Shown: positions 1,068 to 62,420 of the stretch, piece after piece
Layout: each line of letters starts with the position of its first letter
Position numbering within the stretch: the stretch's first letter is position 1
NCBI GenBank assembly: GCA_030654175.1
Contig: JAURXZ010000030.1
Coordinates: forward strand, 653,510 to 717,509
Length of the DNA stretch: 64,000 nucleotides
Origin: Bacteroidia bacterium
GTDB taxonomy: Bacteria; Bacteroidota; Bacteroidia; 2-12-FULL-35-15
Direction of reading: 5' to 3'
Notes under the pieces: generated by a model
What the model was told of the DNA's origin: nothing
Seen by the model: the letters and a program-made list of their open reading frames with translations, nothing else
The model's database searches: none
Translations under genes and position numbers: made by a program

Positions 1068-1141
1068 TTGTTTGGATTTGCATCGTGGGTAAAAAGTATA
1101 GAATTTGTGTAGAATCATTTTAGTGTGTTTTTTCAAAAAGG

Positions 1142-3358: not shown

Positions 3359-3376
3359 TTTTATTACTTTTTTATA

Positions 3377-12581: not shown

Positions 12582-14765
12582 TTAAACTCTAATTCCAATC
12601 ACTAAAATATCATCCACCTGCTCACAATTTCCTTTCCACTGTTGGAGCTGTTTATTTAAAATTTCTTTTTGCATGCGCATTGGCTTATGGCAATTCGCCA
12701 AAAACAACTCTTTCAATTGTTTGGACTGGAATTTTTTACCTTTCGGTCCACCAAACTGATCAACGTAACCATCGCTGAATGTAAAAATACAATCGCCTTT
12801 TTCTAATGGGATCACTGTGCGTGTGAATGGTTTTTCTATACCAATATGTTTTCCTACAGGCATTTTATCTGGTTTAAATACCAATAGTTCACCATTTCTA
12901 ATAATATAAAAAGAATTATTGGCGGCAGAATATTCCAATTCCATTTTTTTAAGATCGAAACGACACAGAACAGTATCCATTCCATCTTTCCCCTCTTCGG
13001 AAGACCCTTCAGGGTTAACTGCTAAAATTATTATTCTACGTAATTCATTAAGAATTTCATCCGTATGTTTAAGATGGGATTTGGAATAAATAATTTCATT
13101 AAGAATCCCCATACTGATCAAACTCATAAATGCACCCGGTATTCCGTGGCCGGTGCAATCAGCTGTACAAACATACAGGTCGTTATCTTTTTCCATCAAC
13201 CAATAAAAATCCCCACTCACAATATTTCGAGGCTGATACAAAATAAAATAATCGGAAAGGCGCTGAGAAATATACCTTTCAGATGTTAAAAAAGAAGATT
13301 GAATTCGTTTTGCATAGCTGATACTCTCGGTAATTTCTTTATTCTTTTGGCTGATCTCAATATTCGCTTTTTGTTTAATCCGATAACGGTTATAAGCAAG
13401 CAACGCAAACAACAATAACAATATACTTACTCCAATAGAACCATTTTTAACAACATTCTGGTTTTTTAACTTCGCCTCTTGTAATGATTTGTCTTTGGTA
13501 AGCAGTTCGATCTCTTTTTCTTTTTTATCAGTTTCATATTTAGTTTGTATTTCCGCCATGTTTTTTGAATTGTTTTCATTCATAAGCGAATCTTTAATAG
13601 TGGCATGATGTCTAAAATAAGTATATGCATTTTTAAAGTCTTCTTTTTTTAAGTATGCTTCTGAAAGTTCTTCATTACCTTCCATCAATATTTCCTTACT
13701 TTTAATAGATTCAGCAAGTACTAAACTTTTTTTTAGATATTTCAATGCCTTTTCAATATCCCCTTTATTAGAATATAAAGTACCAATATTGAGCAATGAT
13801 TTTGCGCTTCCATCTTTATTTTCAATATCATCATTTATAAGCAAGGCTCTCTCATAATATTCTAAGGCTTTTTCGTAATTTTTTTTGTTGCTGTATATGT
13901 TTCCGATATTCATTAGAGAAATTGCAGTTGCGGTTTTATCTTTAATTTCTTCAGTAATTCGCAAAGATTTTAGATAATATACCAATGCAGTATCATTGTT
14001 TTTTAGTTTTTCATAAACATTTCCAATATTAGTTAGGGATTTATTAAGACCCGCTTGACTTTGCACCTCAGTGCTGATTGCCATCGCTTGTTTATAATAG
14101 GTCAAAGCGCTTTCGTAATTCCCGCCTGCCTTATAAACATTCCCAACTCCTAAAGAAGGGTTAATCATTAACTCCCTATTGCCAAGCTGCTCAAATGTTT
14201 TTAATGCCTTGATATAATACTCCAAAGCTTTTTCATAATTCCCTGTATAAAAATACGAGGTCGCAATATTGCTAAGTGGCATGGATTTTTTATCTCCAAT
14301 GAATTCACAAATTTCTAAAGATTTTAAATAATTTTTTAAAGCTTTTTCATAATTTCCTTGATTTATATTAACATTCCCAATACTATTTAAACTATTCGCA
14401 ATTCCTTTTTTATCGGAAATACCTTCTCTGACAGATAATGCTTTAGAATACTGCTCTAATGCTTTATCAAAATCCCCTTGAACAAAATAAATAGCACCAA
14501 TTGCGCTATAAGAGTTTCCTATCCCTTTTTTAAAATCAATTTTTGCAGAAAGTTTTAATGCTTCATGGGAATGTTCTAAAGCTTTTTCAGGGTTTTTTTT
14601 TCTGTATTCTACTGACAGAGCATTTAGAATATTTATTTTTGATGTGTCGACAGAATTTTTTAATTCATTTTCGAGACTATCTATTTTATTGGATTGGGGA
14701 AAGCAACTTGCAGGATGAAATAAAATGCAAACAAAAATCAAAAAGGAAAATAAAAAATATTTCAT
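12582..14765 (-). CDS. TPR / TM / PP2C (SpoIIE-type) phosphatase, fourth paralog
   Basis: 727 aa with signal peptide, TPR units, TM segment SIGVSILLLLFALLAY, and the phosphatase block SGDFYWLMEKDNDLYVCTADCTGHGIPGAFMSL...FSDGYVDQFGG. Confidence 0.85.
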   Translation of the reverse strand: MKYFLFSFLIFVCILFHPASCFPQSNKIDSLENELKNSVDTSKINILNALSVEYRKKNPEKALEHSHEALKLSAKIDFKKGIGNSYSAIGAIYFVQGDFDKALEQYSKALSVREGISDKKGIANSLNSIGNVNINQGNYEKALKNYLKSLEICEFIGDKKSMPLSNIATSYFYTGNYEKALEYYIKALKTFEQLGNRELMINPSLGVGNVYKAGGNYESALTYYKQAMAISTEVQSQAGLNKSLTNIGNVYEKLKNNDTALVYYLKSLRITEEIKDKTATAISLMNIGNIYSNKKNYEKALEYYERALLINDDIENKDGSAKSLLNIGTLYSNKGDIEKALKYLKKSLVLAESIKSKEILMEGNEELSEAYLKKEDFKNAYTYFRHHATIKDSLMNENNSKNMAEIQTKYETDKKEKEIELLTKDKSLQEAKLKNQNVVKNGSIGVSILLLLFALLAYNRYRIKQKANIEISQKNKEITESISYAKRIQSSFLTSERYISQRLSDYFILYQPRNIVSGDFYWLMEKDNDLYVCTADCTGHGIPGAFMSLISMGILNEIIYSKSHLKHTDEILNELRRIIILAVNPEGSSEEGKDGMDTVLCRFDLKKMELEYSAANNSFYIIRNGELLVFKPDKMPVGKHIGIEKPFTRTVIPLEKGDCIFTFSDGYVDQFGGPKGKKFQSKQLKELFLANCHKPMRMQKEILNKQLQQWKGNCEQVDDILVIGIRV

Positions 14766-25765: not shown

Positions 25766-26064
25766 CGATGTGCTGATGTGCTGATTCCTGATGAGATAAT
25801 GTGCTAAATTTTTGATGTGCTAATGTGCTGATTAGTTGATGTGCTGATGAACCAGTGAACAAAATTTTAATGTACAACATACTAATGACTAAGATGATGC
25901 GTAGATGTGCTGATTAGTTGACTTTCCAGTCACTGATTAGCTCTTTTCTCACAAATTCTGAAATCAAATTTATGCCAACTAAATCGTTATATTTGTACAT
26001 TGCTAATCAGTACATCAACTAATCAGCACATTAGCACATTAGCACATCGGTAAATCAGCACATT
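25766..26064. repeat. Composite repeat filling the lpxK/DUF3109 divergent intergenic region. Tandem TGTGCTGAT-type units form a left arm (25766-25850), a right arm (26001-26064) is their reverse complement, and a partial middle copy lies at 25903-25922.
   Basis: Left arm cgatgtgctgatgtgctgattcctgatgag...tgatgtgctaatgtgctgattagttgatgtgctgatg. Right arm aatcagtacatcaactaatcagcacattagcacattagcacatcggtaaatcagcacatt. The right arm ends 6 nt before the DUF3109 ATG. Confidence 0.7.
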
Positions 26065-28137: not shown

Positions 28138-30633
28138 ATGTACGTAATAAAAAGAGACGGAAACCGGGAATCGGTAAAATTTGACAAGATCACAGCACGT
28201 ATCCAAAAACTTTGCTACGGATTAGATGCTACTCACGTAACAGCTATCAGTGTTGCGATGAAAGTGATTGAAGGTATTTACGAAGGTGTAAGTACCAGTG
28301 AATTGGACAACTTAGCGGCTGAAACAGCTGCAGCACTTACTACCAAACACCCTGACTATGCGCTTTTGGCATCACGCATAGCTGTTTCTAACTTACACAA
28401 AAACACTAATAAATCGTTTTCCAAAACAATGGAAGCGCTTTATTCATACATCGACCCGAAGACAAGCAAAAAAGCACCTTTGATCGCTGATGATGTTCAT
28501 GAGATCATTCAAAAAAATGCACAGGAATTAGATTCCACCATTATTTATGACCGCGATTTCGGTTATGATTATTTCGGATTTAAAACATTGGAGCGTTCTT
28601 ACCTTTTAAAATTGAACGGAATGGTGGCTGAACGCCCTCAACACATGATCATGCGTGTGGCTGTTGGTATTCACAAAGATGATATTGCATCCGTTATTGA
28701 AACATATAACCTGATGAGCGAGCGTTGGTTTACACATGCTACACCAACATTGTTTAATGCAGGAACTCCAAAACCACAAATGTCGTCATGCTTTTTGTTA
28801 ACGATGAAAGATGATAGCATTGATGGTATCTATGACACATTGAAAAACTGTGCAAAAATTTCACAAAGTGCAGGTGGTATCGGATTAAGCATTCATAACA
28901 TACGTGCTACAGGTTCTTACATACGTGGTACAAATGGTACTTCGAACGGTATCATCCCGATGTTGCGTGTATTTAATGATACTGCACGTTATGTTGATCA
29001 GGGCGGTGGGAAACGTAAAGGTTCATTCGCTATTTATTTAGAGCCTTGGCATGCTGATATCTATGAGTTTTTAGATATCCGTAAAAACACTGGTAAAGAA
29101 GAAGCCCGTGCACGTGACCTTTTCACTGCAATGTGGACTCCCGATCTATTCATGAAACGTGTAGAAGCGAATGGCGACTGGTCATTGTTCTGCCCTAACG
29201 AAGCACCAGGCTTGGCTGATTGCTGGGGTGAAGCATTCGAAAAATTATATACTAAATACGAAAAAGAAGGCCGTGCACGTAAAGTAATTAAAGCACGCGA
29301 ACTTTGGACAGCTATTATCGATTCACAAATTGAAACCGGTAACCCTTACATGCTTTACAAAGATGCTTGTAACGCAAAGAGCAATCAACAAAATTTGGGT
29401 ACTATCAAATCATCTAACCTTTGTACCGAAATTTTAGAGTACACTGCACCAGATGAGATCGCTGTGTGTAACCTGGCTTCTATCGCTCTTCCACGTTTTG
29501 TTGAAGGTGGAAAATTTGATCACCAAAAATTATTTGATATCACGTATGTGATCACTAAAAATTTAAATAAAGTAATTGATCGTAATTACTACCCGGTTGC
29601 TGAAGCAAAAAAATCTAATTTACGTCACCGCCCTATTGGTATTGGTGTACAAGGTTTGGCTGATGCATTTATTTTAATGCGTTTCCCTTTCGATTCTCCG
29701 GAAGCAATATTATTGAATAAAGAAATTCACGAGACCATCTATTATGCTGCAATGACAGCATCAAAAGACCTTGCGAAAGTAGAAGGCACTTATGAAACAT
29801 ACGAAGGATCACCTGTTTCGAAAGGTGTATTCCAATATGATATGTGGAATGTTACCCCATCTAGCCGTTGGGAGTGGGATGTGTTGAAAGAGGAAGTAAA
29901 AAAACACGGTGTGCGTAACTCCTTGTTATTAGCGCCAATGCCAACTGCAAGCACTTCACAGATCTTAGGAAATAACGAATGTTTTGAACCGTATACTTCC
30001 AATATTTATTCGAGACGTGTATTATCAGGTGAGTTTGTGATCGTGAACAAACACTTGTTGAAAGACCTTGTTAAATTGGGTATCTGGAATGACAGCTTGA
30101 AAAATAAAATTATTATTGCCAATGGTTCCGTACAAAACATTGAAGTAATACCGGCTAACATTAAAGCATTGTACAAAACAGTTTGGGAAATTTCTCAAAA
30201 GGTGATCATCAACATGGCTGCTGACCGTGGAGCATATATCTGCCAGTCACAATCATTGAACCTGTTTGTACAGGATGCTAATTTTGCGAAACTATCTTCT
30301 ATGCATTTTTATGGTTGGAAAGCAGGATTAAAAACCGGCATGTATTACTTACGTACCAAAGCTGCTGCTGATGCAATTAAATTTACTGCTGATGCTTCTG
30401 CTGCTAATGAAAAACCATTAACAGTTACTACCACAACTGCAACTACTGCAACAACAACAGCCCCTACCGAAGTATTGGGTAACGAGGATGTATTGATACA
30501 GGAGCGCCAACAACAAATAAGCAATGAACGCCAGGCACTATTAGAAGCTGAAGCACAAAAAGCTGCTGAGATCGCTGCTCAATTGACTTGTTCGCTGGAT
30601 AACCCGGATGCTTGTGAGGCTTGTGGGAGTTAG
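28138..30633 (+). CDS. nrdA: Class Ia ribonucleoside-diphosphate reductase large (alpha/R1) subunit with ATP-cone
   Basis: 831 aa. N-terminal ATP-cone ([16 protein letters not shown]), catalytic NLCTEI and Cys residues, and a C-terminal CxxC tail (CEAC). Unusual Thr/Ala-rich plus Gln-rich insertion before the tail. Confidence 0.9.
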
Positions 30634-30654
30634 GTAACAAAAAATAATTAATGT

Positions 30655-30693
30655 AAAAAGCCCCGATTACATAAAGTAGTTGGGGCTTTTTAG
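30655..30693 (+). terminator. Rho-independent terminator after nrdA
   Basis: agcccc(gattacataaagtagtt)ggggct followed by ttttt. Confidence 0.7.
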
Positions 30694-30890
30694 TCTAAAA
30701 TTCTATCATTAATTTTTTAACGAATAGCTATGAAGGAAGAATTACAGACACCAAGAAAAACGACACAAACATTCGCATATCTACCCAAAAACTGGTTGCT
30801 ATGCGCTACTTTGTAGCGAGTATAAACTGGTTAGTGGTAATTTTAAGAACTACTTTATAGACAACATAATTCTTCACATAAATCAATACT

Positions 30891-31280
30891 ATGGACTTAA
30901 AAGATTTTATTAAAAACACTATTTCTTCCATAAGCACTGCAATTACTGAAAGTCAAACAGAATTAGCAGAGAAAGGTGTAATTGTTAATCCTGAAAGGAT
31001 GGAAATTGGAAAAAATGGGGAGAAGCTACTTCGAAGTGATGGTTGGCGTTATATTCAAAGTTTGGAATTTGATATTTTAGTTGGCGTTGAGGAACAACAA
31101 AATGGAAATGGAAAAGCAGAACTAAAGGTTGCCGGGATTTTAAACATTGGTGGAGGCTTAACTGAACAGAGTACGAATCAAAACCAAAATCGCATTAAAT
31201 TTAATATCCCAGTTGCTTTTCCTACAAGCGATACTCCTGAAAAATATAAAAGCAGCAAGGGTCAATATAGTGTTGCATAA
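30891..31280 (+). CDS. Hypothetical protein (no recognisable domain; Gly/Asn/Gln-rich central region)
   Basis: 129-aa ORF flanked by a terminator upstream and the REP foldback downstream. Coding status rests on ORF length only. Confidence 0.4.
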   Translation: MDLKDFIKNTISSISTAITESQTELAEKGVIVNPERMEIGKNGEKLLRSDGWRYIQSLEFDILVGVEEQQNGNGKAELKVAGILNIGGGLTEQSTNQNQNRIKFNIPVAFPTSDTPEKYKSSKGQYSVA

Positions 31281-31372
31281 GAATACGAGTTACAATCAGG
31301 AATCAAATGACCTATAGTGTAGATTTCCAAACCGAAAAAAAAAGCCTAGTTGATTTTGTTGATAGACCCCCG

Positions 31373-31552
31373 GTAGGCGCTAAGCTGAAGCGTTGCAAGT
31401 GTGTGAGGGCTTAGTGACGTTTTGTAACAGGTAAGCTGTGCTTACAATCCCAATATTTAATTCGAAGACAAAGTTTACTATGTTTGAAGTACTGTGTATG
31501 GTAAGCACAGCTTACCTGTTAAGATAGTCACTAAGCGCAGCTTAGCGCCTAC
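31373..31552. repeat. REP-like nested foldback. Outer inverted repeat is gtaggcgctaagctg / cagcttagcgcctac; inner is taacaggtaagctgtgcttac / gtaagcacagcttacctgtta.
   Basis: Read directly, immediately upstream of the transposase gene. Arm copies recur at 32231-32287, 33865-33882 and 34436-34504. Confidence 0.75.
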
Positions 31553-31671
31553 ATACACCATACACATACCTACACATACATAGTAAATCAAATCCAAAAA
31601 ATAAAGTTACTGTTGAATTTAAAAACAATACCAATTGTTTTGTTTATTTTTAAAATTAAATTCACAAAAGA

Positions 31672-32205
31672 ATGTCAGAAAAATATAAAACACATAGTGA
31701 TGGTTTATACTTTGTTAGCTTTAGTGTTGTAGGCTGGATCGATGTTTTTACAAGAAGAGAATATCAGGAAATTTTGGTGGATAGTATTTCGTATTGTCAA
31801 CAACACAAAAACCTTAAAATTTATTGTTATTGTGTTATGCCAAGTCATGTTCATTTTATAACGTATTCTGAAAATGGCGAAATATCAAATGTTTTAAGAG
31901 ATTTAAAATCATTTACTGCTAAACAAATAATAAAGGCAATAGAAGAAAACCCTACAGAAAGCAGAAAAGAATGGATGTTAAATAAGTTTGAGTATCATGG
32001 AAAAAACAGTCCTCAAAAACAAAAGATGCAATTCTGGAAACATGATAATCATCCATTTTTTTTATATAGCAATAAAATGATCCAGCAAAAAGTGGATTAT
32101 ATTCATAACAACCCTGTTGAAGCAGGTTTTGTTAACGACCCTAAAGAGTGGCGGTTGAGCAGCGCTAATGAACAAAGCCCGATAAAATTGGATGAACGCA
32201 TTTAG
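31672..32205 (+). mobile_element. IS200/IS605-family HuH tyrosine transposase (Y1 / REP-associated RAYT-like TnpA)
   Basis: 177 aa. HuH motif in CVMPSHVHFI and size/organisation typical of RAYT. Flanked on both sides by copies of the same palindromic repeat ending ...cactaagcgcagcttagcgcctac (31524-31552 and 32263-32287). Confidence 0.7.
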
Positions 32206-32230
32206 CTGGCTACTATATTTGAAGAACTGA

Positions 32231-32287
32231 GTATGGTATTCATAACTTACCAATTAAGGATATCACTAAGCGCAGCTTAGCGCCTAC
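32231..32287. repeat. Degenerate copy of the right arm of the REP-like foldback, downstream of the RAYT gene
   Basis: gtatggta...cttacc..ttaagga tatcactaagcgcagcttagcgcctac aligns to 31496-31552 with an internal deletion. Confidence 0.65.
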
Positions 32288-32353
32288 GCGAGTATACTAA
32301 ACTAAACAAAAAAGAGTTTTCTACCAATACAGTCAAAACAGAGGTTACAAACA

Positions 32354-32920
32354 ATGGATATGGATCTGATCACTTTTCTAAAGAGTCTCACTACTATCGT
32401 ACCCCAAACAGAAGCAGAAATACACAAAGTGTTTTTTGCCGAACAATTGCCCAAAGGCCACAAACTTCACGAAGAAGGTGAAGTCTGTAATCAATTATTT
32501 TACATTGAAAGTGGTTTATCGCGCACCTTTTATTTTAATGAAGAGGGGAAAGACATTACCTACCGCTTTAATGGAGAAAACACCTTTACTTCACTCATAG
32601 AAAGCTATTACGATCACAAACCAAGCTTTTATACAATTGAATTGCTTGAGGATGCTGTTGTGCACACTGCACCATTCCCTGAATTTGAAAAACTCCTGGA
32701 AAAACACCCTGAACTGATGAAAGTTTATAACCATGTACTGCGCAATTTTGTTCTTCAATCCAATGAACGAATTGTTGCACTTCAGTTTCACAATGCACAG
32801 GAACGCTACCAAATGTTTGTCGACAAAAACCCGCACCTTCTTCAACGGGCGTCATTGGGCCATATCGCTTCTTACCTTGGCATTACACAGGAAACATTAA
32901 GTCGTATCCGCTCAAAATAA
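32354..32920 (+). CDS. Crp/Fnr-family transcriptional regulator (cNMP-binding domain + C-terminal HTH)
   Basis: 188 aa. Beta-roll region (GEVCNQLFYIESGLSRTFYFNEEGKDITY) and HTH ASLGHIASYLGITQETLSRIRSK. Confidence 0.8.
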   Translation: MDMDLITFLKSLTTIVPQTEAEIHKVFFAEQLPKGHKLHEEGEVCNQLFYIESGLSRTFYFNEEGKDITYRFNGENTFTSLIESYYDHKPSFYTIELLEDAVVHTAPFPEFEKLLEKHPELMKVYNHVLRNFVLQSNERIVALQFHNAQERYQMFVDKNPHLLQRASLGHIASYLGITQETLSRIRSK

Positions 32921-32936
32921 TTGGCAGGAAAAAAAA

Positions 32937-32961
32937 TTTTTTGACAAATGTCAAAAATTTT
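32937..32961. promoter_or_regulatory. AT-rich palindrome containing TTGACA-AA-TGTCAA (TTGAC-N4-GTCAA), a Crp/Fnr-family-type operator candidate between the regulator gene and the hemolysin-III gene
   Basis: Perfect 6+2+6 inverted repeat at 32941-32954 with extended A/T symmetry. Downstream lies a TAacTTTG element (32980-32987) resembling the Bacteroidetes -7 promoter motif. Confidence 0.45.
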
Positions 32962-33015
32962 CTCATTGCTGCGGCTGTAACTTTGCATTACAAAACAATT
33001 ACTATCAGCAAGGTT

Positions 33016-33840
33016 ATGAAAACAATAAAAAAAACAGATCGATTTCCAAAATACGGAAGCCTTTTAAAAGACATTAGCCCATTTACCCATTCCGAATTAG
33101 ACAAATTTCTGTATGAGCCGGAAAACAGGACCAGCCCCCGTTTTGACATGCATCAACAAGAGTTAAGTACCGGGAACAATGTATTTTACCGGGCTGTTAA
33201 GGTGAAAGCAAAAGGAAAGATCCAGAGTACCAGCGAAGAAATTGTAAATACCACTACGCACGCAGCTGGTGTTTTACTAATACTCTTATTTTTGCCGGTG
33301 CTTATCAGCAAGGCGATCCATAACAATAACCCACAAATGATCTGGAGCCTTGTAATTTTTGGTTTCGGTATGTTCATGGCTTACCTGGCATCAACAATGT
33401 ATCATCTTGTAAAAAAAGAAGCTACAAAACGTAAGCTGAGGGTGTTGGATCACATTGGTATTTTCCTGTTAATTGGTGGAACATATACCCCAATCGTTTG
33501 TAAATACACAGATACCACTACTGCAATTTATTTCTTGAGTGTGATGTGGTCATTGATAGTTGCCGGTAGTGTACTCAAAGTTTTTTTTACCGGCAGGTTT
33601 GAGCTGTTATCTACCATTATATACCTGTTCCTGGGATGGATGGTGGCATTTATCATACAACCTTTGCACGAACAAATGCCATTGGATGTTTTTCTCTGGA
33701 TATTAGGGGGTGGATTGGCGTATACAACAGGCATTGTTTTTTACCTGTGGCACAGGCTTAAATACCAGCATGGAATATGGCACCTGTTTGTACTTGCCGG
33801 CACCGTACTACAGTTTATAGCTATTTATAAAAGTGTGTAA
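33016..33840 (+). CDS. Hemolysin-III / PAQR family membrane protein
   Basis: Seven-TM protein with hallmark EEIVNTTTHAAG...MYHLVKK...HIGIFLLIGGTYTP...WHLFVLAG. ATG 33016 is preferred over the ORF-track TTG start at 32941, which sits inside the palindrome. An alternative ATG at 33148 is also possible. Confidence 0.7.
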   Translation: MKTIKKTDRFPKYGSLLKDISPFTHSELDKFLYEPENRTSPRFDMHQQELSTGNNVFYRAVKVKAKGKIQSTSEEIVNTTTHAAGVLLILLFLPVLISKAIHNNNPQMIWSLVIFGFGMFMAYLASTMYHLVKKEATKRKLRVLDHIGIFLLIGGTYTPIVCKYTDTTTAIYFLSVMWSLIVAGSVLKVFFTGRFELLSTIIYLFLGWMVAFIIQPLHEQMPLDVFLWILGGGLAYTTGIVFYLWHRLKYQHGIWHLFVLAGTVLQFIAIYKSV

Positions 33841-33896
33841 GTGTTTTTTTAATATAGTTTTGCAGTAGGCGCTAAACTGAAGTATTGTAAATAATT

Positions 33897-34301
33897 TTAT
33901 TGCCGTATTTTATCCTCGTTCATTTTTTCTTTTATCCAGGATAGGGCTGCATTGCTATCTTTAAATAATTTTATATCCGTTTTGTGGTTACATTTATTTA
34001 GTCGCAATAAAAAAAGTCCAATTAAACGTGTACTCAATGATCTTACCACAATGGCCATAGCAATAGTATTTTCGAATGCTTCAGCTGTAGAAGAAAATTC
34101 ACGAGCGTCCTTGTCAATGTTAACAAAATCATGTCCTTCAACCAAAACACTAAACCGCTTCGAATTTGTTAATTGTACAGCAGCGTTATAATTTTCCCGG
34201 GCATCCTCAAGCGTTAAATTAATATTTTCTTTAACTACCACTTTAAGTATTCCTTCTTCTATTAAACTGTTAACAACTGTTCGTGTTTCAATTTCTTGCA
34301 T
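33897..34301 (-). CDS. Hypothetical protein with possible STAS/SpoIIAA-like fold (anti-sigma-antagonist-like)
   Basis: 134 aa. C-terminal ...IKLFKDSNAALSWIKEK resembles STAS-domain C-termini (F-x-s-x-e-A-l-x-W). Assignment from pattern only. Confidence 0.4.
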   Translation of the reverse strand: MQEIETRTVVNSLIEEGILKVVVKENINLTLEDARENYNAAVQLTNSKRFSVLVEGHDFVNIDKDAREFSSTAEAFENTIAMAIVVRSLSTRLIGLFLLRLNKCNHKTDIKLFKDSNAALSWIKEKMNEDKIRQ

Positions 34302-34435
34302 AGCAAAGTAAAAATAAAAATAATTTTTATTATTTAAAAGAACTTAAAACAAAAAAATCTTGAATCAGGGGGGAGCCAAAAGGGAATATTTATACGAAGT
34401 TCGGTTTGGTTTTACTTAAAAACTGGACTTTGCTC

Positions 34436-34504
34436 CCTGTAACCGCCAAGCTGAGGCGTTGCAAGGATGTGAGGACTATTGACTTTTTTAACAGGTAAAC
34501 TGTT
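34436..34504. repeat. Copy of the REP-like left arm, followed by the same ttatttttaaaattaaatt tract that precedes the RAYT gene, here upstream of the M23 peptidase gene
   Basis: ccctgtaaccgccaagctgaggcgttgcaaggatgtgaggactattgacttttttaacaggtaaactgt aligns to 31366-31438. Confidence 0.6.
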
Positions 34505-34535
34505 TTTTGATTATTTTTAAAATTAAATTTATTTT

Positions 34536-35138
34536 ATGTCAAACTTTCTTCTTATTCTGATCACAACATTTTTAATTCAAGGTCCAATCTCCATACCCAT
34601 AGGTTCGGGGAACCGCCAGGATATTTCAAAGATCCATCTGACTAAGATCGGACAGTTTGGGTTGATCAGAAAAGCAAGACCAAATGTACCTGAACATTAT
34701 CATACAGGAATTGACATCAAACGACCAACTGATAATTATGAATCGGAACCGATCTACCCAATCGCAAAAGGCATAGTAATAAGCAAAAGAACGGATGGCA
34801 CTTATGCAAACTTAATAATTGAACATGAAATAAATGGGATCAAACTGTGGACATTATATGAACATATTTCAGGTGTGAAGGTGAAGGTTAATGATGTTGT
34901 GAATTCTAAAATTCCAATTGCACGCTTTATGAATAAAGGGGAGTTAGATCGTTTTGGTTGGCAATTTGATCATTTCCATTTTGAATTAATAAAAGTTAAA
35001 CCGGGTAAAATAAAACCAAGCAATAAAACTCCTGAACGATTTTTTAATTCGTATTCGTTGATCTGTTATAGCATTAATGATCTGAACAAATATTATTTTG
35101 ATCCGATTGAATACTTCAATTATAATATCAATAAATAA
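34536..35138 (+). CDS. M23 (LytM-type) metallopeptidase family protein, secreted
   Basis: 200 aa. Signal peptide, HxxxD motif (HYHTGIDI) and HxH motif (HFHFEL). Confidence 0.65.
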   Translation: MSNFLLILITTFLIQGPISIPIGSGNRQDISKIHLTKIGQFGLIRKARPNVPEHYHTGIDIKRPTDNYESEPIYPIAKGIVISKRTDGTYANLIIEHEINGIKLWTLYEHISGVKVKVNDVVNSKIPIARFMNKGELDRFGWQFDHFHFELIKVKPGKIKPSNKTPERFFNSYSLICYSINDLNKYYFDPIEYFNYNINK

Positions 35139-35413
35139 TAAAGCACCCTGTAAAAATCCATAAAACATTTCTAATAAGTTTGCCTGCCAAGAAAAATTAA
35201 TTTTTGCATCCATCACCAATTAAAAAAGAAATTACGTGCCTGTTTAAATTTCCTGTGTTCGTTTTTCGGAGAATTTAAAATGTGTGAATGATGTAATTTA
35301 TTCCTAAAGTTATGTAATGTATATCCTTTACGAGGGGCTGATCTTTGTAGATCATAATCTACCTATCAGAGATGGTGCACCCTGCTTAAGTAAAACCCTT
35401 TTATTCTTTTATA

Positions 35414-36388
35414 ATGGATCATGTAAATTGGTTTTTAATTCTTCTGAACTTCCTTGCCGGGCTTACCCTGTTTTTATTGGGAGTGTCGAATATGTCGAAA
35501 GGAATGAAAGCGCTTGCTTCGGATAAAATGAAGCAAATACTTGAAAAATTTACATCAAATGTTTTTACCGGGATCTTAACAGGTGCTATTGCTACAACAA
35601 TTTTAGACTCGTCTTCTGTTGTGATCATTATGGTGATAGCTCTGGTAAATGCGCAGCTATTAACTTCTAAGCAATCGTTAGGAATTATATTGGGTTCAAA
35701 TATCGGAACAGCGGTAGGCAGCCAGATCATCGCATTTGATGTTGGAGCATATTCAGCAATTCCATTATTAATAGGCTTTATCATTTTTTTAGCAGGGAGA
35801 AATGATAAAACAAAACAAATTGGAACATGTATTTTGGGGCTTGGATTAATTTTTTTCGGCTTGTATTACATCGGAGCATCCGCTGAACCATTAAAAACAA
35901 TACCTTCTTTTGCTAACCTGATGACGCAAATAGAAACGCCTTACAAAGGCGCTTTAACGGGTGCCATCACCACATTATTAATTCAATCCTCCTCGGCTAC
36001 TCTTGGTATTGTGATATCGCTGGCAAATCAAAATCTAATTACTTTATCTGCTGCAATAGCTGTAATGCTCGGTGCTGAATTAGGCACGTGTTCAAACACT
36101 TTAATTGCCTCCATTGGTAGGTCAAGAGACGCGGTAAGAGCAGGGGTTTTTCATTTGTTTTTCAACATCGTATCCCTGGTATTAGGATTGATATTAATAA
36201 TACCATTTACTTCATTGGTAAATTTAATTTCCGGGGCAGCAACACTTACGCGACACATTGCCAATGCACACGTACTGTTTAATATTTTAGGGGTTGCACT
36301 ATTCATAGGATTTGTTCCAATGATCTCGAAAGTACTTTTAAAAATAATTCCTGACAAAACGGAGCTGAAAACAGTAAACACAATTTGA
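35414..36388 (+). CDS. Na+/phosphate cotransporter family protein (two Na_Pi_cotrans repeats, no PhoU tail)
   Basis: 324 aa. Two copies of the conserved motif (LDSSSVVIIMV...GSNIGT and LIQSSSATLGIVISLA...GAELGT). Confidence 0.8.
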   Translation: MDHVNWFLILLNFLAGLTLFLLGVSNMSKGMKALASDKMKQILEKFTSNVFTGILTGAIATTILDSSSVVIIMVIALVNAQLLTSKQSLGIILGSNIGTAVGSQIIAFDVGAYSAIPLLIGFIIFLAGRNDKTKQIGTCILGLGLIFFGLYYIGASAEPLKTIPSFANLMTQIETPYKGALTGAITTLLIQSSSATLGIVISLANQNLITLSAAIAVMLGAELGTCSNTLIASIGRSRDAVRAGVFHLFFNIVSLVLGLILIIPFTSLVNLISGAATLTRHIANAHVLFNILGVALFIGFVPMISKVLLKIIPDKTELKTVNTI

Positions 36389-36826
36389 GTTATACCGTTA
36401 ATAAAAGCAGTTGACAAGTCCAATTTTTAGTTTATTATCATCATAAAAATCATTATCCGGAAGGATTAGAAAAAAATAATTCTGAACTATCGGACTTGAA
36501 ACGTAAGAAATATTCCAAGTAGGATGGAACAATTTCGACTCAAATGTTTTTTATTCACCGGAAAAAAAACACCCTTCCGCACAGAAAGCCATTCACTCTC
36601 GCTTTTTTGTAATTTTTGCAATCGCCCTTACCAGTGGATGATTTAGACAAGTCTGCATAAATTATATCCAATTACAAACGCTTACAAACAGGTATATCCG
36701 TATATAAACACTTACGAACCGAATCAGGAATGCCGATCTCCACACCTTTGCATCGTCAAAAAACAGCAAACCGTTTTATTGATAACGATATTAAAAACAG
36801 TATTAACAACTAAAAAAACAAAAACC

Positions 36827-37168
36827 ATGAATGCATTACGTAACAAAGTACAATTGATCGGTAACTTAGGAATGGCTCCGGAGATCAAAACATTAGAGAG
36901 CGGAAGAAAACTGGCAAAAATGAGTATTGCCACAAATGAATCGTATAAAAACGCGAAAGGCGAACTTGTAAAAGAAACACAATGGCATAACCTTATTGCC
37001 TGGGGTAAAACTGCAGAGATCATCGAAAAATACCTGAAAAAAGGAAGCGAAGTTGCCATTGATGGAAAACTGATCAACAGAAATTATAACGATAAGGATG
37101 GCGTAAAGCGATATGTAACCGAAATTGAAGTGAATGAAGTGCTTCTAATTGGTGGAAATAAAGCCTAG
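36827..37168 (+). CDS. ssb: Single-stranded DNA-binding protein (OB fold), copy 1 of a tandem duplication; lacks acidic C-terminal tail
   Basis: MNALRNKVQLIGNLGMAPEIKTLESGRKLAKMSIATNESYKNAKGELVKETQWHNLIAWGKTAEIIEKYLKKGSEVAIDGKL is an SSB OB-fold. Start placed at 36827 to match copy 2; the ORF-track start 36779 adds 16 residues. Confidence 0.8.
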   Translation: MNALRNKVQLIGNLGMAPEIKTLESGRKLAKMSIATNESYKNAKGELVKETQWHNLIAWGKTAEIIEKYLKKGSEVAIDGKLINRNYNDKDGVKRYVTEIEVNEVLLIGGNKA

Positions 37169-37224: not shown

Positions 37225-37563
37225 ATGAATGCATTACGTAACAAAGTACAATTGATCGGTAACTTAGGAATGGCTCCGGAGATCAAAACATTAGAGAGCG
37301 GAAGAAAGCTGGCAAAAATGAGCATTGCCACACATGAATCCTATAAAAACGCGAAGGGCGAACTTGTAAAAGAAACACAATGGCATAACCTTATTGCCTG
37401 GGGCAAAACCGCAGATATCATCGAAAAATATTTGAAAAAAGGCAGCGAAGTTGCTATTGATGGAAAACTGATCAACAGTAATTATACCGATAAGGATGGC
37501 GTAAAGCGATATGTAACCGAAATTGAGGTGAATGAAGTACTGATTTTGGGCGGAAAAGAATGA
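37225..37563 (+). CDS. ssb: Single-stranded DNA-binding protein, copy 2 (near-identical to copy 1); lacks acidic C-terminal tail
   Basis: 112 aa, ~93% identical to copy 1. The upstream 17 nt (aaaaaacaaaaaccatg) is also duplicated; repeat unit 398 bp. Confidence 0.8.
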   Translation: MNALRNKVQLIGNLGMAPEIKTLESGRKLAKMSIATHESYKNAKGELVKETQWHNLIAWGKTADIIEKYLKKGSEVAIDGKLINSNYTDKDGVKRYVTEIEVNEVLILGGKE

Positions 37564-42583: not shown

Positions 42584-42835
42584 TTGCAGCAGGCAATTTT
42601 ATACCCGGTAATTGCAAAAAGTTAATCTCTGTTTTTTTATTGATATATTTTAAAGAAAAGTTAATTATTATCCAACACTTCTAATTTTTTGTTAATTGCT
42701 TACTTCAAAATTGTTTAATTCTATCATTTGCCTACTGCAAAATTGCTCAAATTGTAATATTTGCCTACTGTAAAATTGCTTAATTGTTTAATTGTAATAT
42801 TTGCCTACTGACCTAATGCAAAATTGCCTACTGGT
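42584..42835. repeat. Cluster of TTGCCTACTG(c/t)AAAATTGC-type short repeats between the GNAT gene and lysC
   Basis: Four direct copies (42728, 42762, 42802, 42826), including two ~40-bp tandem units aattgtaatatttgcctactg, plus an inverted imperfect copy gcagcaggcaa at 42586-42596. Confidence 0.6.
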
Positions 42836-44551: not shown

Positions 44552-44590
44552 GCAGTAGGCAATTATTCAATTTGAACAATTGCCTACTGC
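44552..44590 (+). terminator. 13-bp perfect hairpin gcagtaggcaatt / aattgcctactgc built from the TTGCCTACTGC repeat; candidate terminator after fbp
   Basis: Read directly 18 nt after the fbp stop. The loop is 13 nt and the downstream tract is only weakly T-rich. Confidence 0.5.
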
Positions 44591-44636
44591 CCAATTGTGA
44601 AATTGTAAAATTTATTTCTTTTAATCGTTTTTTAAT

Positions 44637-45827: not shown

Positions 45828-45937
45828 AAGAATTGCTGATAAAGTCCAATTTGACAATTCTATAAATGGTGAATTTGATCCTATCGCCAATTTAATATCT
45901 CCTCACGCGGAATTGAGTAAGAGAATGAACTTCCAAA

Positions 45938-48900
45938 TTACCGTATTAAAGTTACAATCCCTTTATACTTATGTTTCCGATCTTTTAGATCAATCGCTTC
46001 TACAACATAAACATATACTTCAGCCTGAGCAATTTCGCCACCATGATTTGCTTTTCCATCCCAGGGTTTATCTATATCATCGGTTTTGTAAATTAAATTA
46101 CCCCAACGATCAAAAATAGTCATTTCATATTTTTTTATAAAAATGCCTCTGCCTGAAAAGCTATCATTTATTCCATCTCCATCAGGGGTAAATGCATTAG
46201 GGATATAAAATAAAAAATCGGGTTCAATAATTACGGTTTGATAAGCTGTATCCATACAATTGTATTGAGTGGATGTGATAAGTGTCACTAAGTATGTACC
46301 ACTATCTGCGTAAGTATAAGGAGCAGGGCTTAAGACAGAAGATGTATCAGAACCATCACCAAAATTCCAGTTCCAATGATCGGCTCCCGTGGATAGATCT
46401 GAAATTGAAATGACTGGATTTGTAATCGTTGTTGTTGGGGGGGTAACTGTGAAACTCGCATTTGGAGAGGGATAAACAGTAATGTAATTATTTTTAGTAA
46501 CGGTACTAACGCATCCACTGTCGGAAGTGGCTGTTAGCGTAACATTGAAATGTTCAGGTAAAAATACAGATTCAGTACCGTAACAATGGAATAGGTCCTG
46601 TGCTACTGTGGAAGAGCTTCCATCGCCAAGCGTCCACAACCACTGATCGATACTGCCCGTTGTACTATAGGAGAAATTTAAAAATAAAACACACAAGGGT
46701 TCACAGCCTATTGTATCATAACCATCAAAACGTACTATCGGATTTGGATTGACGGTAATAATTTTAACAGCTGAATCCTCACATCCGAAGTTAGAAACAA
46801 CCAACAGCTCAACAGTATAGGAACCGGAAGAAGTATAAAGGTGAGATGTGTTTTGATTTGTATTTAATGAACTGCTATCTCCAAAGTCCCATAACCAGGA
46901 TGCAATCACGTTATTGGTTGGGATAGTAGAAATATCAGTAAACTGAACATTGTTTCCATCACAAACATTTGCAGTGGAAAACTGTGCATCAGGCGGAGGA
47001 TAAACGATCACATTTTTAATAACTGTATCCGAACATCCATTGCCGGTAATTACTTTCAGAAAAACAGGATATGTTCCCGCCTGAGTATATAATTTATCGG
47101 GGCTCTGAGTGCTAGCGTCAATGCCGGTATTGTAATCAAAATCCCATTGCCAGCTGGCAATATTATCCGGAACTGCAACCGTTGAAAGATCTGTAAATTG
47201 AGTAAGCGCATTTAAACAAACACTATCAGCTTTAAAAGCTGCAAGGGGTTTAGCATAAACATCTATTGTATGAAGCACACTATCTTTGCACCCCTGCGCT
47301 GTAATAGCCATTAATTCTATATCGTAGCTACCCGGAGAGTAGGTATGTGTTGGCGAAAACGATGTATCATCAATTCCGGTAGTATGATCAAAATCCCAAC
47401 TGTAAACAGAAGCGCCTGTGGAAGTGTTTTGAAAAGCAGCTTGTAAGTAATCACAAACATTATTGACAGTAAAAGCTGCTACCGGAAGACAATAAACGTC
47501 CAAAGGTTTGGTGCTGGTAGAAGTACATCCGCTATCAGATGTTGCTGTGAGGCTGACAGTATAGGTATTGCAAACAGAATACAAATACGTAGGATTTTGT
47601 AAAATTGAACCTGCTGTCCCTTGTCCGAAAGTCCAGTTGTAAGCATCAATAGTACCGCTGTTAATAGTGCTACTATCTATAAATACGGAAGTAAGCCCAA
47701 CACATACGGCAGATGCTCCAAAGTTCACCACAGGATTAGGATTTACGTAAACAATACTACTGTCTTTTGCTACACAATTGTTTTGATCTGATACTGTTAA
47801 AATATAATTTGCGGTAATAGTTGGAGAAAAAGTTATGTTCTGAGTGGTTAAGCCTCCCGGCTGCCAACTATAATTATAAGAGCCAGTTCCGCCTGTATTT
47901 GTTGAGTTTAAGGTGCCGCTGCTTCCCTGGCAGATAGAAACGAAATTTGTAATATCTGATATTAGTTTGGTTGGTTCTGTGATAGTCACATTTTGAGTAA
48001 CCGTGCATAAATTCGAATCGGTTACCGTGCAGGTATAACTGCCTTGAATAAGCGCTGTGGCTTGTTGCGAGGTTTGAACAGGTGTGCTGTTCCAGCTATA
48101 AGAATAAGGCGGTGTGCCTCCTATGGCAATAATAGTGGCATCTCCTGTGGCATCTCCAAAACATTTAACATGATCAATAAAAACATTGTCAATACCGAGT
48201 GCCGCTGCCGGACTTGTGATCACAGTGCTGTCTTGCGATGCGCAGCCCTTTATATCCGCTACTGTTACTATATACTTTACCGGGGTCAAACCTGTTATCA
48301 CTGCGGTAGTAGATGTGTTACTCCATGCATACGTATAAGGAGCTGTTGTGCCCGAACCTGCAGCAGTTATTGCTCCGTCATTCAGGCCGAAGCAGCTTAC
48401 ATTAGTAGGATCGAGAGAAACGACAGGCAGGGGCAATATGCTGAGTGTATCATAAATAGTATCTGTGTAACAGGCATAGTGATTAATAGCAGTTACCAGG
48501 TAATCTGCTGTACTATCAAATTGCATAACCGGATTGTAAACTGAGGCTGTTCCGATCAATACATTAGGAGTTGTAAGTAATGCAAACCGCCAATCATAAC
48601 TTACTATTTTAAATGTATCCAACAATCCGAACTGTACAAATCGATTTACACAACTGTCGCTTGCAACTATTTTGTTTACTGGCCGGATCAAACTGGTAAC
48701 AATTGCGGGTAAGCCTAATGTTGATGATCGTCCACCCAAACTTTGTTGCATATCCACATATCCGCAGCCTGTACCCAATATATTCGGACTATTAATTACG
48801 CCTAAAGATGTTTGTCCATGCAAGGCAGCGTATATTTTACCATTGGCGGCAATCTGCAATGCACACATCTTATAACCTATTGCATTAGCTGTGGTTCCAA

Positions 48901-49825
48901 TGATCTGCCTGGATGCCAAAAACGCAGCATTATTTGCCACTGTTAAATCGTACTGATAAATGTTTGAGTTGTTCAATAAAGCATAATAAAGTATTTTGTT
49001 ATCAGGAGAAAATTCCTGACTGTATGAATAACCTCCGGGTGAAGAATCCGAAAACTTAGTACTCAAAACACCTGATGTATTGTTAAAATCATATACATAT
49101 ATACCATTGGGCACTGAGCCATGGGTTGCTGTAACTATCTTGCTATCAGGCGATGACTTTAATGAGCCCAAATGGGCATCCATCGCTGGACCAACAGAAC
49201 TAATAACAGGTGTATTGTTAAAACCGGCAGATGTTATGGCATAAGCATAATAATCAGGCGTTCCTACCGGCTTTCCTATTACCCAAAAATCACAATTATT
49301 GGAATGTTGTGCTACACATATTTTTTCTGTTGTAGTGGTACCATACAGATGTATGTTTTTTACTGCAGTTACGCTTCCCAGTCCGCCATTCAACGTCATA
49401 TCTACTTCAGAATAACGTACACCGTTGGGGCCACCAACATATTCAACTGTAACTATAAAATATTTATCAAAACGTTTACTTCCGTAGTTATAGGTTCCGG
49501 GGTAAGGAACTATAATAGCTGATTGAGTTGCAGAAGGATTACCAAACAAGCCTGTTCCATTGGGCATTGCCACATGATTTTTATTCCAGACAGTTATACC
49601 ATCCGTATAAAATACCAATGCGCCATTTTTGTCCGCCACAGATGCACAGCCTTCTGAAGTGCTAAGTACTCCATCGGTAAGTGGTGTTGGAGGGTCCGTG
49701 TTAAAATCAAGTCCCGCATTAACCCCAAAATACCAAATGTTGGCTTCACCCTGTGCAAAAATAGCAGATGTAAAACTTAGTATAAAAAAAGTGTAAAAAA
49801 ATAATATTTTTAATCGTGTGCCCAT
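45938..49825 (-). CDS. Giant secreted adhesin-like protein: N-terminal beta-propeller-like region, SprB repeats, PKD-like repeats, T9SS type B (gliding-motility-associated) C-terminal domain
   Basis: 1295 aa with signal peptide. SprB-repeat matches (VSCFGLNDGAITAAGSGTTAPYTYAWSN..., HVKCFGDATGDATIIAIGGTPPYSYSWNS...). C-terminus YIPNAFTPDGDGINDSF...FDRWGNLIYKTDDIDKPWDGK...YVYVV is the TIGR04131-type CTD. Confidence 0.85.
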   Translation of the reverse strand: MGTRLKILFFYTFFILSFTSAIFAQGEANIWYFGVNAGLDFNTDPPTPLTDGVLSTSEGCASVADKNGALVFYTDGITVWNKNHVAMPNGTGLFGNPSATQSAIIVPYPGTYNYGSKRFDKYFIVTVEYVGGPNGVRYSEVDMTLNGGLGSVTAVKNIHLYGTTTTEKICVAQHSNNCDFWVIGKPVGTPDYYAYAITSAGFNNTPVISSVGPAMDAHLGSLKSSPDSKIVTATHGSVPNGIYVYDFNNTSGVLSTKFSDSSPGGYSYSQEFSPDNKILYYALLNNSNIYQYDLTVANNAAFLASRQIIGTTANAIGYKMCALQIAANGKIYAALHGQTSLGVINSPNILGTGCGYVDMQQSLGGRSSTLGLPAIVTSLIRPVNKIVASDSCVNRFVQFGLLDTFKIVSYDWRFALLTTPNVLIGTASVYNPVMQFDSTADYLVTAINHYACYTDTIYDTLSILPLPVVSLDPTNVSCFGLNDGAITAAGSGTTAPYTYAWSNTSTTAVITGLTPVKYIVTVADIKGCASQDSTVITSPAAALGIDNVFIDHVKCFGDATGDATIIAIGGTPPYSYSWNSTPVQTSQQATALIQGSYTCTVTDSNLCTVTQNVTITEPTKLISDITNFVSICQGSSGTLNSTNTGGTGSYNYSWQPGGLTTQNITFSPTITANYILTVSDQNNCVAKDSSIVYVNPNPVVNFGASAVCVGLTSVFIDSSTINSGTIDAYNWTFGQGTAGSILQNPTYLYSVCNTYTVSLTATSDSGCTSTSTKPLDVYCLPVAAFTVNNVCDYLQAAFQNTSTGASVYSWDFDHTTGIDDTSFSPTHTYSPGSYDIELMAITAQGCKDSVLHTIDVYAKPLAAFKADSVCLNALTQFTDLSTVAVPDNIASWQWDFDYNTGIDASTQSPDKLYTQAGTYPVFLKVITGNGCSDTVIKNVIVYPPPDAQFSTANVCDGNNVQFTDISTIPTNNVIASWLWDFGDSSSLNTNQNTSHLYTSSGSYTVELLVVSNFGCEDSAVKIITVNPNPIVRFDGYDTIGCEPLCVLFLNFSYSTTGSIDQWLWTLGDGSSSTVAQDLFHCYGTESVFLPEHFNVTLTATSDSGCVSTVTKNNYITVYPSPNASFTVTPPTTTITNPVISISDLSTGADHWNWNFGDGSDTSSVLSPAPYTYADSGTYLVTLITSTQYNCMDTAYQTVIIEPDFLFYIPNAFTPDGDGINDSFSGRGIFIKKYEMTIFDRWGNLIYKTDDIDKPWDGKANHGGEIAQAEVYVYVVEAIDLKDRKHKYKGIVTLIR

Positions 49826-49885
49826 TACTTAGAACATTTATTAATTAACCCGTTGGTGAAGCATAAATCATACAGCAATCATGAT

Positions 49886-53143: not shown

Positions 53144-53157
53144 TCGTTTGTGTCGAT

Positions 53158-55647: not shown

Positions 55648-55700
55648 GAATAAATTTTCTTTTATTTAATTTACAATATGAATATAGCCTCTGTTTTCAA

Positions 55701-62267: not shown

Positions 62268-62420
62268 CCTTTGCTATTTTGGCAAATTAAAATTACTGAA
62301 AACAATAGTTTTGAAAGGTAATAAAAAAGATGCTGTAAATTGGAAAATAGTTGCATTGGGAGGACAAGCTATATCAAAACGAAATATTGAGATATCAGTA
62401 TATCAAGAAAAGAAAGAAAT

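Follow-up and report, generated by a model that had tools for sequence, protein, structure and literature searches.

The 64,000-nucleotide (nt) stretch analysed here (the window; Bacteroidia bacterium assembly GCA_030654175.1, contig JAURXZ010000030.1, positions 653,510 to 717,509 of the forward strand) contains a gene for a tyrosine transposase of the kind associated with repetitive extragenic palindromic sequences (REPs), the REP-associated tyrosine transposases or RAYTs, and this gene is enclosed by inverted, hairpin-bearing repeats. The locus is probably a RAYT (TnpAREP-like) gene of Bacteroidota subclass 2.6, also called Group 5, accompanied by the repeat ends that belong to it, in other words a Bacteroidota REPtron. 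An earlier reading made from the letters alone (the sequence-only reading) had already proposed a REPtron organisation and had thought it known mainly from Proteobacteria; the gene and its inverted cognate repeats bear out the organisation, whereas its occurrence outside the Proteobacteria is no surprise, a Bacteroidetes RAYT subclass (2.6 or Group 5) with flanking secondary structures having been described in 2017-2018 in the subclass accounts of PMC6006769 and PMC5581495. The window locus is a further example of that subclass, and what we add is its precise repeat architecture with covariation, the interpretation of an upstream foldback as derived from the whole unit, and a low-copy, partly insertion sequence (IS)-like behaviour in relatives.

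The transposase and its subclass

The open reading frame (ORF) at 31672..32205 on the + strand is intact and encodes a protein of 177 amino acids (aa). The curated equivalog model NF047646 (REP_Tyr_transpos) of NCBIfam scores it at 100.8 bits against a cutoff of 80, while the IS200 model NF033573 (transpos_IS200) gives 22.2 bits against a cutoff of 55. Because the first model passes its cutoff and the second fails, the protein is, judged by these profiles, a Y1 HuH enzyme of the RAYT type and not of the IS200 type, and the protein call made in the sequence-only reading is right. The Pfam Y1_Tnp profile, proposed beforehand as a check, matches at 29.8 bits. The HuH motif PSHVHFI, which had been the starting point of the sequence-only reading, occupies residues 57-63. 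E. coli TnpAREP (4ER8) is the sole meaningful sequence match among solved structures, and in the alignment with it H59-V-H61 falls on the HMH motif, while Y143 and N147-P148 fall on Y115 and N119-P120. The catalytic tyrosine, on whose absence the first reading had staked its refutation, is present as Tyr143 within YIHNNP, and N119 of the E. coli enzyme is flagged as essential in the text of PMC6006769. The catalytic codons lie on the + strand at 31846-31848 (H59), 31852-31854 (H61) and 32098-32100 (Y143).

Conservation and predicted structure agree with this classification. Across 42 homologues (60-97% identity) residues H59, Q120, W122, Y143, N147 and P148 are invariant, and H61 is conserved in at least 90%. 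The AlphaFold model of the protein has a pLDDT of 91 and a pTM of 0.85, and the top Protein Data Bank match of the predicted fold is 4er8_A (E = 3.8e-7, TM 0.64/0.68), with the ISDra2 and IS608 TnpA structures ranking behind it. Some 2,000 database homologues are 176-183 aa long, and all of those with a named organism come from Bacteroidia or Bacteroidota. A phage search for RAYT homologues found none, and a plasmid search found only 5, all distant. Exact-sequence look-ups of the window RAYT, of the M23 peptidase encoded downstream and of an upstream 129-aa ORF matched no record.

The subclass can be judged from traits given in the literature. TnpAY1 subclass 2.6 (Quentin et al. 2018, PMC6006769), equivalent to Group 5 of Bertels et al. 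2017 (PMC5581495), is characterised in the subclass text of the former as mostly Bacteroidetes proteins with a mean length of 179 aa, a median HuH-Y distance of 82, the motif YIH[QN]NP and a C-terminal SS motif; examples are Aequorivita sublithincola AFL81591, Belliella baltica AFL82922 and Fluviicola taffensis AEA44309. With 177 aa, a HuH-to-Y spacing of 82, YIHNNP, S163-S164 and a Bacteroidota host, the window protein fits subclass 2.6, as far as length, spacing, motifs and host can tell. The same account describes genes of this subclass as flanked by secondary structures that are low-copy elsewhere in the genome, as is also seen in relatives of the window locus.

Architecture and covariation of the repeat ends

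The architecture of the repeats was worked out from relatives. These were collected by retrieving homologues together with their flanking sequence and by searching the GTDB species genomes with a degenerate 22-mer of the right end and the JGI metagenomes with a 24-mer; the resulting loci are cited by number (L001 and so on). At seven loci with unrelated neighbours (L005, L008, L020, L028, L030, L041, L044) the gene is bracketed by a left end (LE) and a right end (RE) of the same architecture in inverted orientation. The canonical unit of 761-777 nt comprises LE, a leader of ~70 nt, gene and RE, and each end is an arm of ~75-95 nt with two hairpins. Read foot first, the outer hairpin consists of a C-run, one variable base, GTA(G), a stem of 8-10 bp (CGCTAAGC/GCTTAGTG) with G·T at its second pair, and a loop of 3 nt. 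The full canonical order is C-run, [G/T]TAGG foot, outer hairpin, spacer, inner hairpin GGTAAGC-TGY-GCTTACC, ATACACAGTACTTCAAAC, leader, gene, inverse arm and G-run, and in the window's lineage the outer hairpin of the left end carries a loop insert of ~22 nt. LE and RE are inverted copies of one another, so that the strand carrying the foot-first hairpin differs between the ends, with a C-run before the foot and a G-run after the right end. These runs were considered as a target-site duplication and rejected as such, being inverted rather than direct and varying in length from 4 to 11.

The pairing of these stems covaries. Among 34 distinct right-end copies, pair 12-34 of the outer stem is CG in 14, GC in 14, AU in 2, GU in 2, UG in 1 and unpaired in 1. 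Scored at the two stem pairs that the search pattern did not constrain, which between them show CG, GC, AU, UA and GU types, covariation reaches 0.156 against 0.040 in shuffles, with 0/500 shuffles as high, and 95% of cells are paired as opposed to at most 45% when the partner is slid. The inner hairpin, which in 26 of 41 distinct right-end copies is separated from the outer one by 12-16 nt, likewise shows compensatory variants (GTAAGC/GCTTAC, GTAGGC/GCCTAC, GTAAGT/ACTTAC, TTAAGC/GCTTAA). The covariation indicates that stem pairing is maintained by selection. The G·T pair at the second position, which the search pattern did not fix, is kept in 33/34 copies and recurs in left ends of a different stem sequence, such as CGCGAAGT/ACTTCGTG in L035. 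Folded singly, the short hairpins are no more stable than shuffled sequence (z near 0 to -1.4), so that what makes them significant is their repetition and their covariation in relatives and not the energy of folding.

The position of the G·T pair also bears on the molecule in which the hairpins are likely to be read. Because in a right-end mRNA the foot-first G·T would turn into an A·C mismatch, a role at the RNA level is unlikely and we infer that the hairpins are recognised as single-stranded DNA, as is the case for REP and TnpAREP. A possible course of events can be taken from established knowledge of E. coli TnpAREP and of the IS608 and ISDra2 enzymes. In this scheme a monomeric or dimeric Y1 enzyme would bind the hairpins where single strands are exposed, such as at the replication fork, and would read the foot together with the G·T irregularity of the stem. 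Cleavage beside the foot would be carried out by the HuH-bound metal and Tyr143 through a 5'-phosphotyrosine link, after which the strands would be rejoined, and the DNA bounded by the ends might be excised, copied or inserted.

In the window itself the same parts can be recognised in a rearranged order. When the entire window was searched without filters using R1, a covariance model built for the outer module, significant matches came only at 31373-31424, 31521-31560 and 32256-32295 and at the two inner hairpins. The left end begins with a C-run (CCCCC) and a G at 31367..31372 (+), directly 5' of the foot and in keeping with the CCCCC that precedes GTA in the consensus of the 34 copies. Its outer module at 31373..31418 (+; R1 25.6 bits, E = 2.5e-5) has the foot GTAGG, the stem CGCTAAGC...GCTTAGTG(AC) and a 22-nt loop insert at 31388-31409 that is also borne by the left ends of L005, L020, L028, L030 and L041. 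The inner module at 31425..31445 (+) forms the hairpin GGTAAGC-TGT-GCTTAC within TAACAGGTAAGCTGTGCTTAC and has a partial R1 match at 31432-31444. There follows a foldback spacer, or loop, at 31446..31497 (+), whose 3' part (31476-31497) copies the sequence following the RAYT stop codon, and then an extra right end upstream of the gene at 31498..31552 (-; R1 44 bits, E = 9e-11), with its inner hairpin at 31500-31516, its outer hairpin at 31529-31547 and its foot CCTAC at 31548-31552, which is GTAGG on the minus strand. The leader at 31553..31671 (+) contains a core (31638-31662) that is kept in relatives and duplicated with 96% identity at 34505-34529. The right end of the gene-bearing unit (RE') lies beyond the gene at 32211..32287 (-; R1 46.8 bits, E = 1.4e-11); its outer hairpin and foot (32264-32287) are identical to those of the upstream RE, while its inner hairpin, intact in a 96.8% relative (L038), has decayed to GGTATTCATAACTTACC. 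The foot GTAGG with its hairpin thus stands at 31373 (+) in LE, at 31552 (-) in RE and at 32287 (-) in RE', in inverted orientation.

The sequence-only reading had described the upstream structure as a nested foldback of 180 bp, and this is present: the outer arms at 31373-31387 and 31538-31552 (GTAGGCGCTAAGCTG/CAGCTTAGCGCCTAC) are complementary at 15/15 positions and the inner arms at 31425-31448 and 31498-31521 (24 nt) at 96%. Folded as single-stranded DNA, 31360-31565 reaches -50.8 kcal/mol against -21.9 +/- 3.0 when shuffled (z = -9.7; 0/200 shuffles as good). The degenerate copy of the right arm that had been reported downstream, ending in the same way, is likewise real, with 32211-32287 repeating 31476-31552 in the same orientation at 83% identity; all 13 mismatches fall in the first 53 nt and none in the last 24, which are the outer hairpin and foot. 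This 24-mer, CACTAAGCGCAGCTTAGCGCCTAC, ends both RE and RE' and has 2 matches in the window against 0.00 expected. The 15-mer GTAGGCGCTAAGCTG has 5 matches at up to 3 mismatches, all within 31373-34453, against 0.46 expected, and 0/100 shuffles reach 5. The unremarkable stability of the single short hairpins might suggest that the palindromes arose by chance, or that they are intergenic structure of a generic kind with no relation to the ORF; this is made extremely improbable by the excess of matches and by the energy of the foldback, as well as by the recurrence of the same ends around homologous genes at unrelated loci and by the covariation of their stems.

The order in the window is LE (31373-31445), 30 nt, a copy of the 3' flank with RE (31476-31552), leader (31553-31671), gene and RE' (32211-32287), which gives a unit of 915 nt compared with ~770 in the canonical form. 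The foldback is more than the nested palindrome first described and is best read, from this order of parts, as an LE joined to an extra RE, a putative internal-deletion-type derivative of the whole unit. Its two inverted arms, short spacer and single long hairpin (31373-31552) are those by which REP doublets forming hairpins (REPINs) are recognised, and the same rearranged order is present in L001, a relative with 93% nucleotide identity. Scans for other functions gave little. A sigma-70 promoter and terminator scan of 31250-34650, which does not cover Bacteroidota promoters, returned fewer sites than shuffled sequence and nothing at the repeats; no T-runs of terminator type follow the hairpins; and against Rfam the region 30500-35500 produced just two chance matches, both below threshold.

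Comparison with described systems places these repeats close to, and yet apart from, their nearest counterparts. The Aequorivita subclass 2.6 repeat listed in Table S1 of PMC6006769, GCTAG-CGCGAGCG-TCC-CGCTCGTG, follows the same plan of 5-nt foot, 8-bp stem, G·T second pair and 3-nt loop, and for Belliella the same table gives a foldback of 122 nt. The window family differs from the subclass 2.6 repeats described there in belonging to the CGCTAAGC stem sequence family with a GTA(G) foot, and the text on subclass 2.6 and Table S1 of PMC6006769 contain no mention that we could find of a two-hairpin arm, of C-run and G-run flanks or of gene-less internal-deletion derivatives. The REPtron of E. 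coli K-12 (tnpAREP/yafM with REPs and bacterial interspersed mosaic elements; 4ER8) shares the Y1 HuH fold, the HuH and Y-x-x-x-N-P motifs, the inverted hairpins, a GTAG-type 5' foot and the stem irregularity. However, sequence identity to its transposase is only ~20%, E. coli has hundreds of REPs where this family is low-copy, and the arms here are ~75-95 nt long with two hairpins. Moreover, for the E. coli gene no movement as a unit is known, whereas duplicated gene-bearing units are seen in relatives of the window locus.

Copy number, dispersal and possible mobility

Confinement of the repeat to this locus had been named in advance as evidence that would count against the sequence-only reading. 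It holds strictly for the 64 kb, where the repeats are confined to 3.1 kb around the gene, while related metagenome-assembled genomes (MAGs) show low-copy dispersal. The scan of GTDB species genomes yielded 25 stretches in 13 Bacteroidota MAGs with 1-7 core matches per MAG, counts that rest on an exact 19-base core and are lower bounds, since repeats assemble poorly. No RAYT-coding remnant is present in 19/25 of the fetched stretches, and 39/41 core matches lie outside any stop-to-stop frame of at least 90 aa and are in this sense extragenic. The JGI metagenome collection gave only 10 stretches, and neither the 20 kb around the L005 gene nor the 8.5 kb around the L044 gene contains further copies. 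By these counts the repeat family is low-copy and far below the density of REPs in E. coli or Pseudomonas. The proposal that the gene sits within its own REP-like repeats is accordingly sustained as regards the inverted hairpin ends, which are the same at unrelated loci in homologues, whereas a classical high-copy REP population was not demonstrated. Two candidate lines of evidence were discarded: the 8-mer GTAGGCGC at 22568 was rejected as chance, being unsupported by R1, and the ending of relatives' contigs in or next to repeats (L001-L004, L008, L038) was rejected as proof of multiple copies, as a long inverted repeat alone can break short-read assembly. Separately, L021 contains three same-orientation matches to the hairpin module ~110 nt apart (408-669), a tandem cluster with no RAYT gene nearby.

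Several of these observations could be accommodated by a classical domesticated REPtron, in which a single immobile RAYT keeps tens to hundreds of REP or REPIN copies genome-wide and the window holds only the gene-adjacent ones. The gene is present once in the window and at one fixed locus in 24/24 contigs of the P0070 lineage, its product is highly conserved and of constant length across ~2,000 homologues that are rare on plasmids and absent from phages, and RAYT-less copies are dispersed in MAGs; furthermore, Bertels et al. 2017 (PMC5581495) give ~31 occurrences of flanking 16-mers for Group 5. Conversely, the other 60 kb of the window hold zero copies, none lie beyond the flanks in the surveyed surroundings of the L005 and L044 genes, no MAG exceeds 7 core matches, the JGI yield is small, and one MAG contains two 93%-identical gene-bearing units together with truncated gene copies, which is unexpected for a domesticated single-copy gene. 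We therefore consider this explanation unlikely.

The MAG in question, CAMBDK01, shows signs that the whole unit has moved. Its gene-bearing units L028 (frameshifted) and L030 (intact) share 93% identity along their full 773 nt; the homology does not extend past the C- and G-runs, and the sequences on either side are unrelated. Also in this MAG are L014 and L029, in which a 3' fragment of the gene is accompanied by a right end, and L019, a gene-less copy composed of LE, leader, the first 7 RAYT codons, 3' flank and RE. In another MAG (L032) 15 N-terminal codons are fused to a right end, and L033 and L035/L036 are LE+RE doublets of ~100 nt without a gene. Duplicated units and apparent internal-deletion derivatives suggest a behaviour like that of IS elements and miniature inverted-repeat transposable elements rather than that of a high-copy REP population. 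The REPINs of P. fluorescens SBW25 (PMC3116915) offer a parallel in their two inverted arms and in the long hairpin next to the RAYT, and the gene-less doublets of relatives (L033, L035) resemble them. SBW25 differs in that its REPINs number in the hundreds and its RAYT is single-copy, whereas the doublets here are few and some retain RAYT codons (L019, L032).

It has been proposed that REPINs derive from the ends of an autonomous ancestor, known RAYTs seeming unable to mobilise themselves (Bertels & Rainey 2011, PMC3116915). Tentatively, and with rather less than even confidence, we raise the possibility that the RAYT in this uncultured Bacteroidia clade is not fully domesticated and that the 0.77-kb LE-gene-RE unit may still transpose autonomously, shedding REPIN-like gene-less derivatives. 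The single fixed locus of the P0070 lineage counts against a unit that is still autonomous.

Other features were noted around the relatives' units. Tandem partial duplications directly after a complete right end recur in several genomes, in L014 (862-1096), L028 (3386-3582), L040 (706-887) and L016 (~3550-3700); they comprise the last 20-50 RAYT codons and the right end, have their junctions at the G-run, and may reflect slippage or aberrant end processing. In L044 (P0070) the LE-gene-RE unit is bracketed at 3780-3815 and ~4740-4780 by direct copies of a terminator-like hairpin of ~45 nt (caacaaaaagCCCCGYtccttttcaggACGGGGctttttg). At 11486-12052 of L005/L006/L007 a divergent second RAYT paralogue (188 aa, 47% identity) lies ~1 kb downstream of an 86%-identical homologue.

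An IS-like behaviour also raises the question of an ordinary IS200/IS605 element, with an IS200-type TnpA, subterminal hairpins and peel-and-paste movement as a unit through single-stranded DNA. The locus shares with IS608 and ISDra2 the HuH/Tyr single-stranded DNA transposase fold, reflected in the Pfam Y1_Tnp match, as well as hairpins that define both ends and the lack of a visible direct target duplication, and one MAG does hold multiple and truncated copies. In IS608, however, the LE and RE hairpins are on the same strand, whereas here the ends are long inverted repeats (~75-95 nt) whose foot-first hairpins, like those of REPINs, are on opposite strands. Moreover, the IS200 model failed where the RAYT model passed, the tyrosine motif is the class 2 form Y-x-x-x-N-P and not the Y-x-x-x-Q of IS200, and most repeat copies are gene-less, all of which makes an IS200/IS605 element very unlikely.

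Several points count against our own reading of the locus as a subclass 2.6 REPtron. No repeat copy was found outside 31373-34503 in the window, even by R1 with its filters off, the MAG copy numbers are lower bounds as noted, and the two-copy evidence comes from one metagenome bin (CAMBDK01), possibly of mixed strains. The protein has SHVH instead of the subclass 2.6 consensus NH[LIV]H and W122-K instead of WQ; these deviations affect consensus residues and not catalytic ones, the His and Trp themselves being kept. The text on subclass 2.6 in PMC6006769 describes its repeats as having no GT[AG]G consensus, whereas the window family has GTA(G/C/A/T). The window copy is itself non-canonical, its LE being cut off from the leader by the extra RE, the inner hairpin of RE' being decayed and a G-run being absent after either RE, and it may no longer be mobile as a unit.

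Relic copies, neighbouring sequences and implications

Further arm copies had been reported near 33865 and 34436, and both are real (85% identity at the first; 81% and 90% in the two parts of the second). These left-end relics lie 1.6 and 2.2 kb downstream. The first, at 33865..33890 (+) between hlyIII and a DUF7793 gene, retains the foot and the 5' half of the outer module and is kept at the same site in L001 and L038. The second, at 34435..34535 (+), is a decayed left end (34435-34503; 81% over 34435-34477 and 90% over 34484-34503) fused to the copy of the RAYT leader core (34505-34529); about 198 nt of the RAYT locus are missing from it, with the junction at CTGT/TTGT, and R1 gives it a weak match at 34431-34463 that is not significant (8 bits, E = 3.6). 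The stretch reaches the ATG of an M23 peptidase gene (34536). The tract preceding the transposase start codon had been said to stand before this gene as well, and a 24/25 copy of it does so; the leader tract TTATTTTTAAAATTAAATT occurs exactly twice in the 64 kb, at 31644 and 34511. Since at 34435-35138 a decayed left end and this leader copy directly precede the gene, the M23 peptidase 5' region, possibly including its promoter, looks element-derived. The idea that the M23 gene is cargo inside a complete element was rejected, as no right end is present downstream of it. The synteny of window and L001 is lost at 34120, within the DUF7793 gene, and the break coincides exactly with an LE-like sequence, GCAGGCGCTAAGCTGAAGC, in L001 (~2650-2720), whose DUF7793 gene is there truncated to 90 aa.

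Relics of this kind could also mean that the locus is dead, immobile in this organism, with hairpins that persist for a host role such as mRNA stabilisation, regulation or service as the M23 peptidase 5' region. The rearranged order is common to the 93%-identical relative and hence stable, decay has affected the inner hairpin of RE', relatives keep the relics at 33865 and 34435 in place, and the leader copy abuts the M23 start codon. On the other hand, the ORF is intact with catalytic residues that are all invariant in the sense given above, RE and RE' have kept the outer hairpin and foot perfectly in spite of 25% divergence in the sequence beside them, and an LE-like end lies exactly where the synteny of close relatives is broken, which suggests recent activity. 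An mRNA-level role is in addition made improbable by the A·C mismatch that the G·T pair would give in the right-end transcript. Terminator-like T-runs are absent after the hairpins. A dead relic is, on balance, quite unlikely, and we retain the reading of the locus as a Bacteroidota REPtron.

Elsewhere in the window there are repeats of other kinds. Two tandem SSB-like (single-stranded DNA-binding) genes at 36779-37168 and 37225-37563 have 300-nt cores that are 95% identical, suggesting a recent tandem duplication. At 42685-42835 (and 44569-44608) 4-5 tandem units of ~33-40 nt with ATTTGCCTACTG[C/T]AAAATTGC may be protein-binding iterons, and at 25766-25921 there are four units of ~24 nt built on TGATGTGCTGATGTGCTGAT. 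Internal repeats with a 120-nt periodicity at 1-5000 and 13800-14600, and units of 250-270 nt at 45900-63400, are unrelated to the RAYT repeats. Among the relatives, L001 encodes a large PKD/CHU_C protein beside its RAYT locus.

Work on RAYTs and REPs has been carried out almost entirely in Proteobacteria, the Bacteroidota subclass having only been catalogued and its repeats called "atypical". Together with its relatives, the window locus provides an alignable architecture of foot, G·T stem, second hairpin and C/G-run flanks, and so offers concrete substrates for a first biochemistry of subclass 2.6. For annotation, the repeats mark synteny breakpoints between close strains and seem to be the source of the 5' region of a nearby peptidase gene. 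The coexistence of gene-bearing units and deletion derivatives is candidate evidence on the origin of REPINs from autonomous elements. If the unit were still autonomous, this clade would stand between IS200-type insertion sequences and REPtrons as a living intermediate, in the ancestral state postulated by Bertels & Rainey (2011) for the origin of REPINs.

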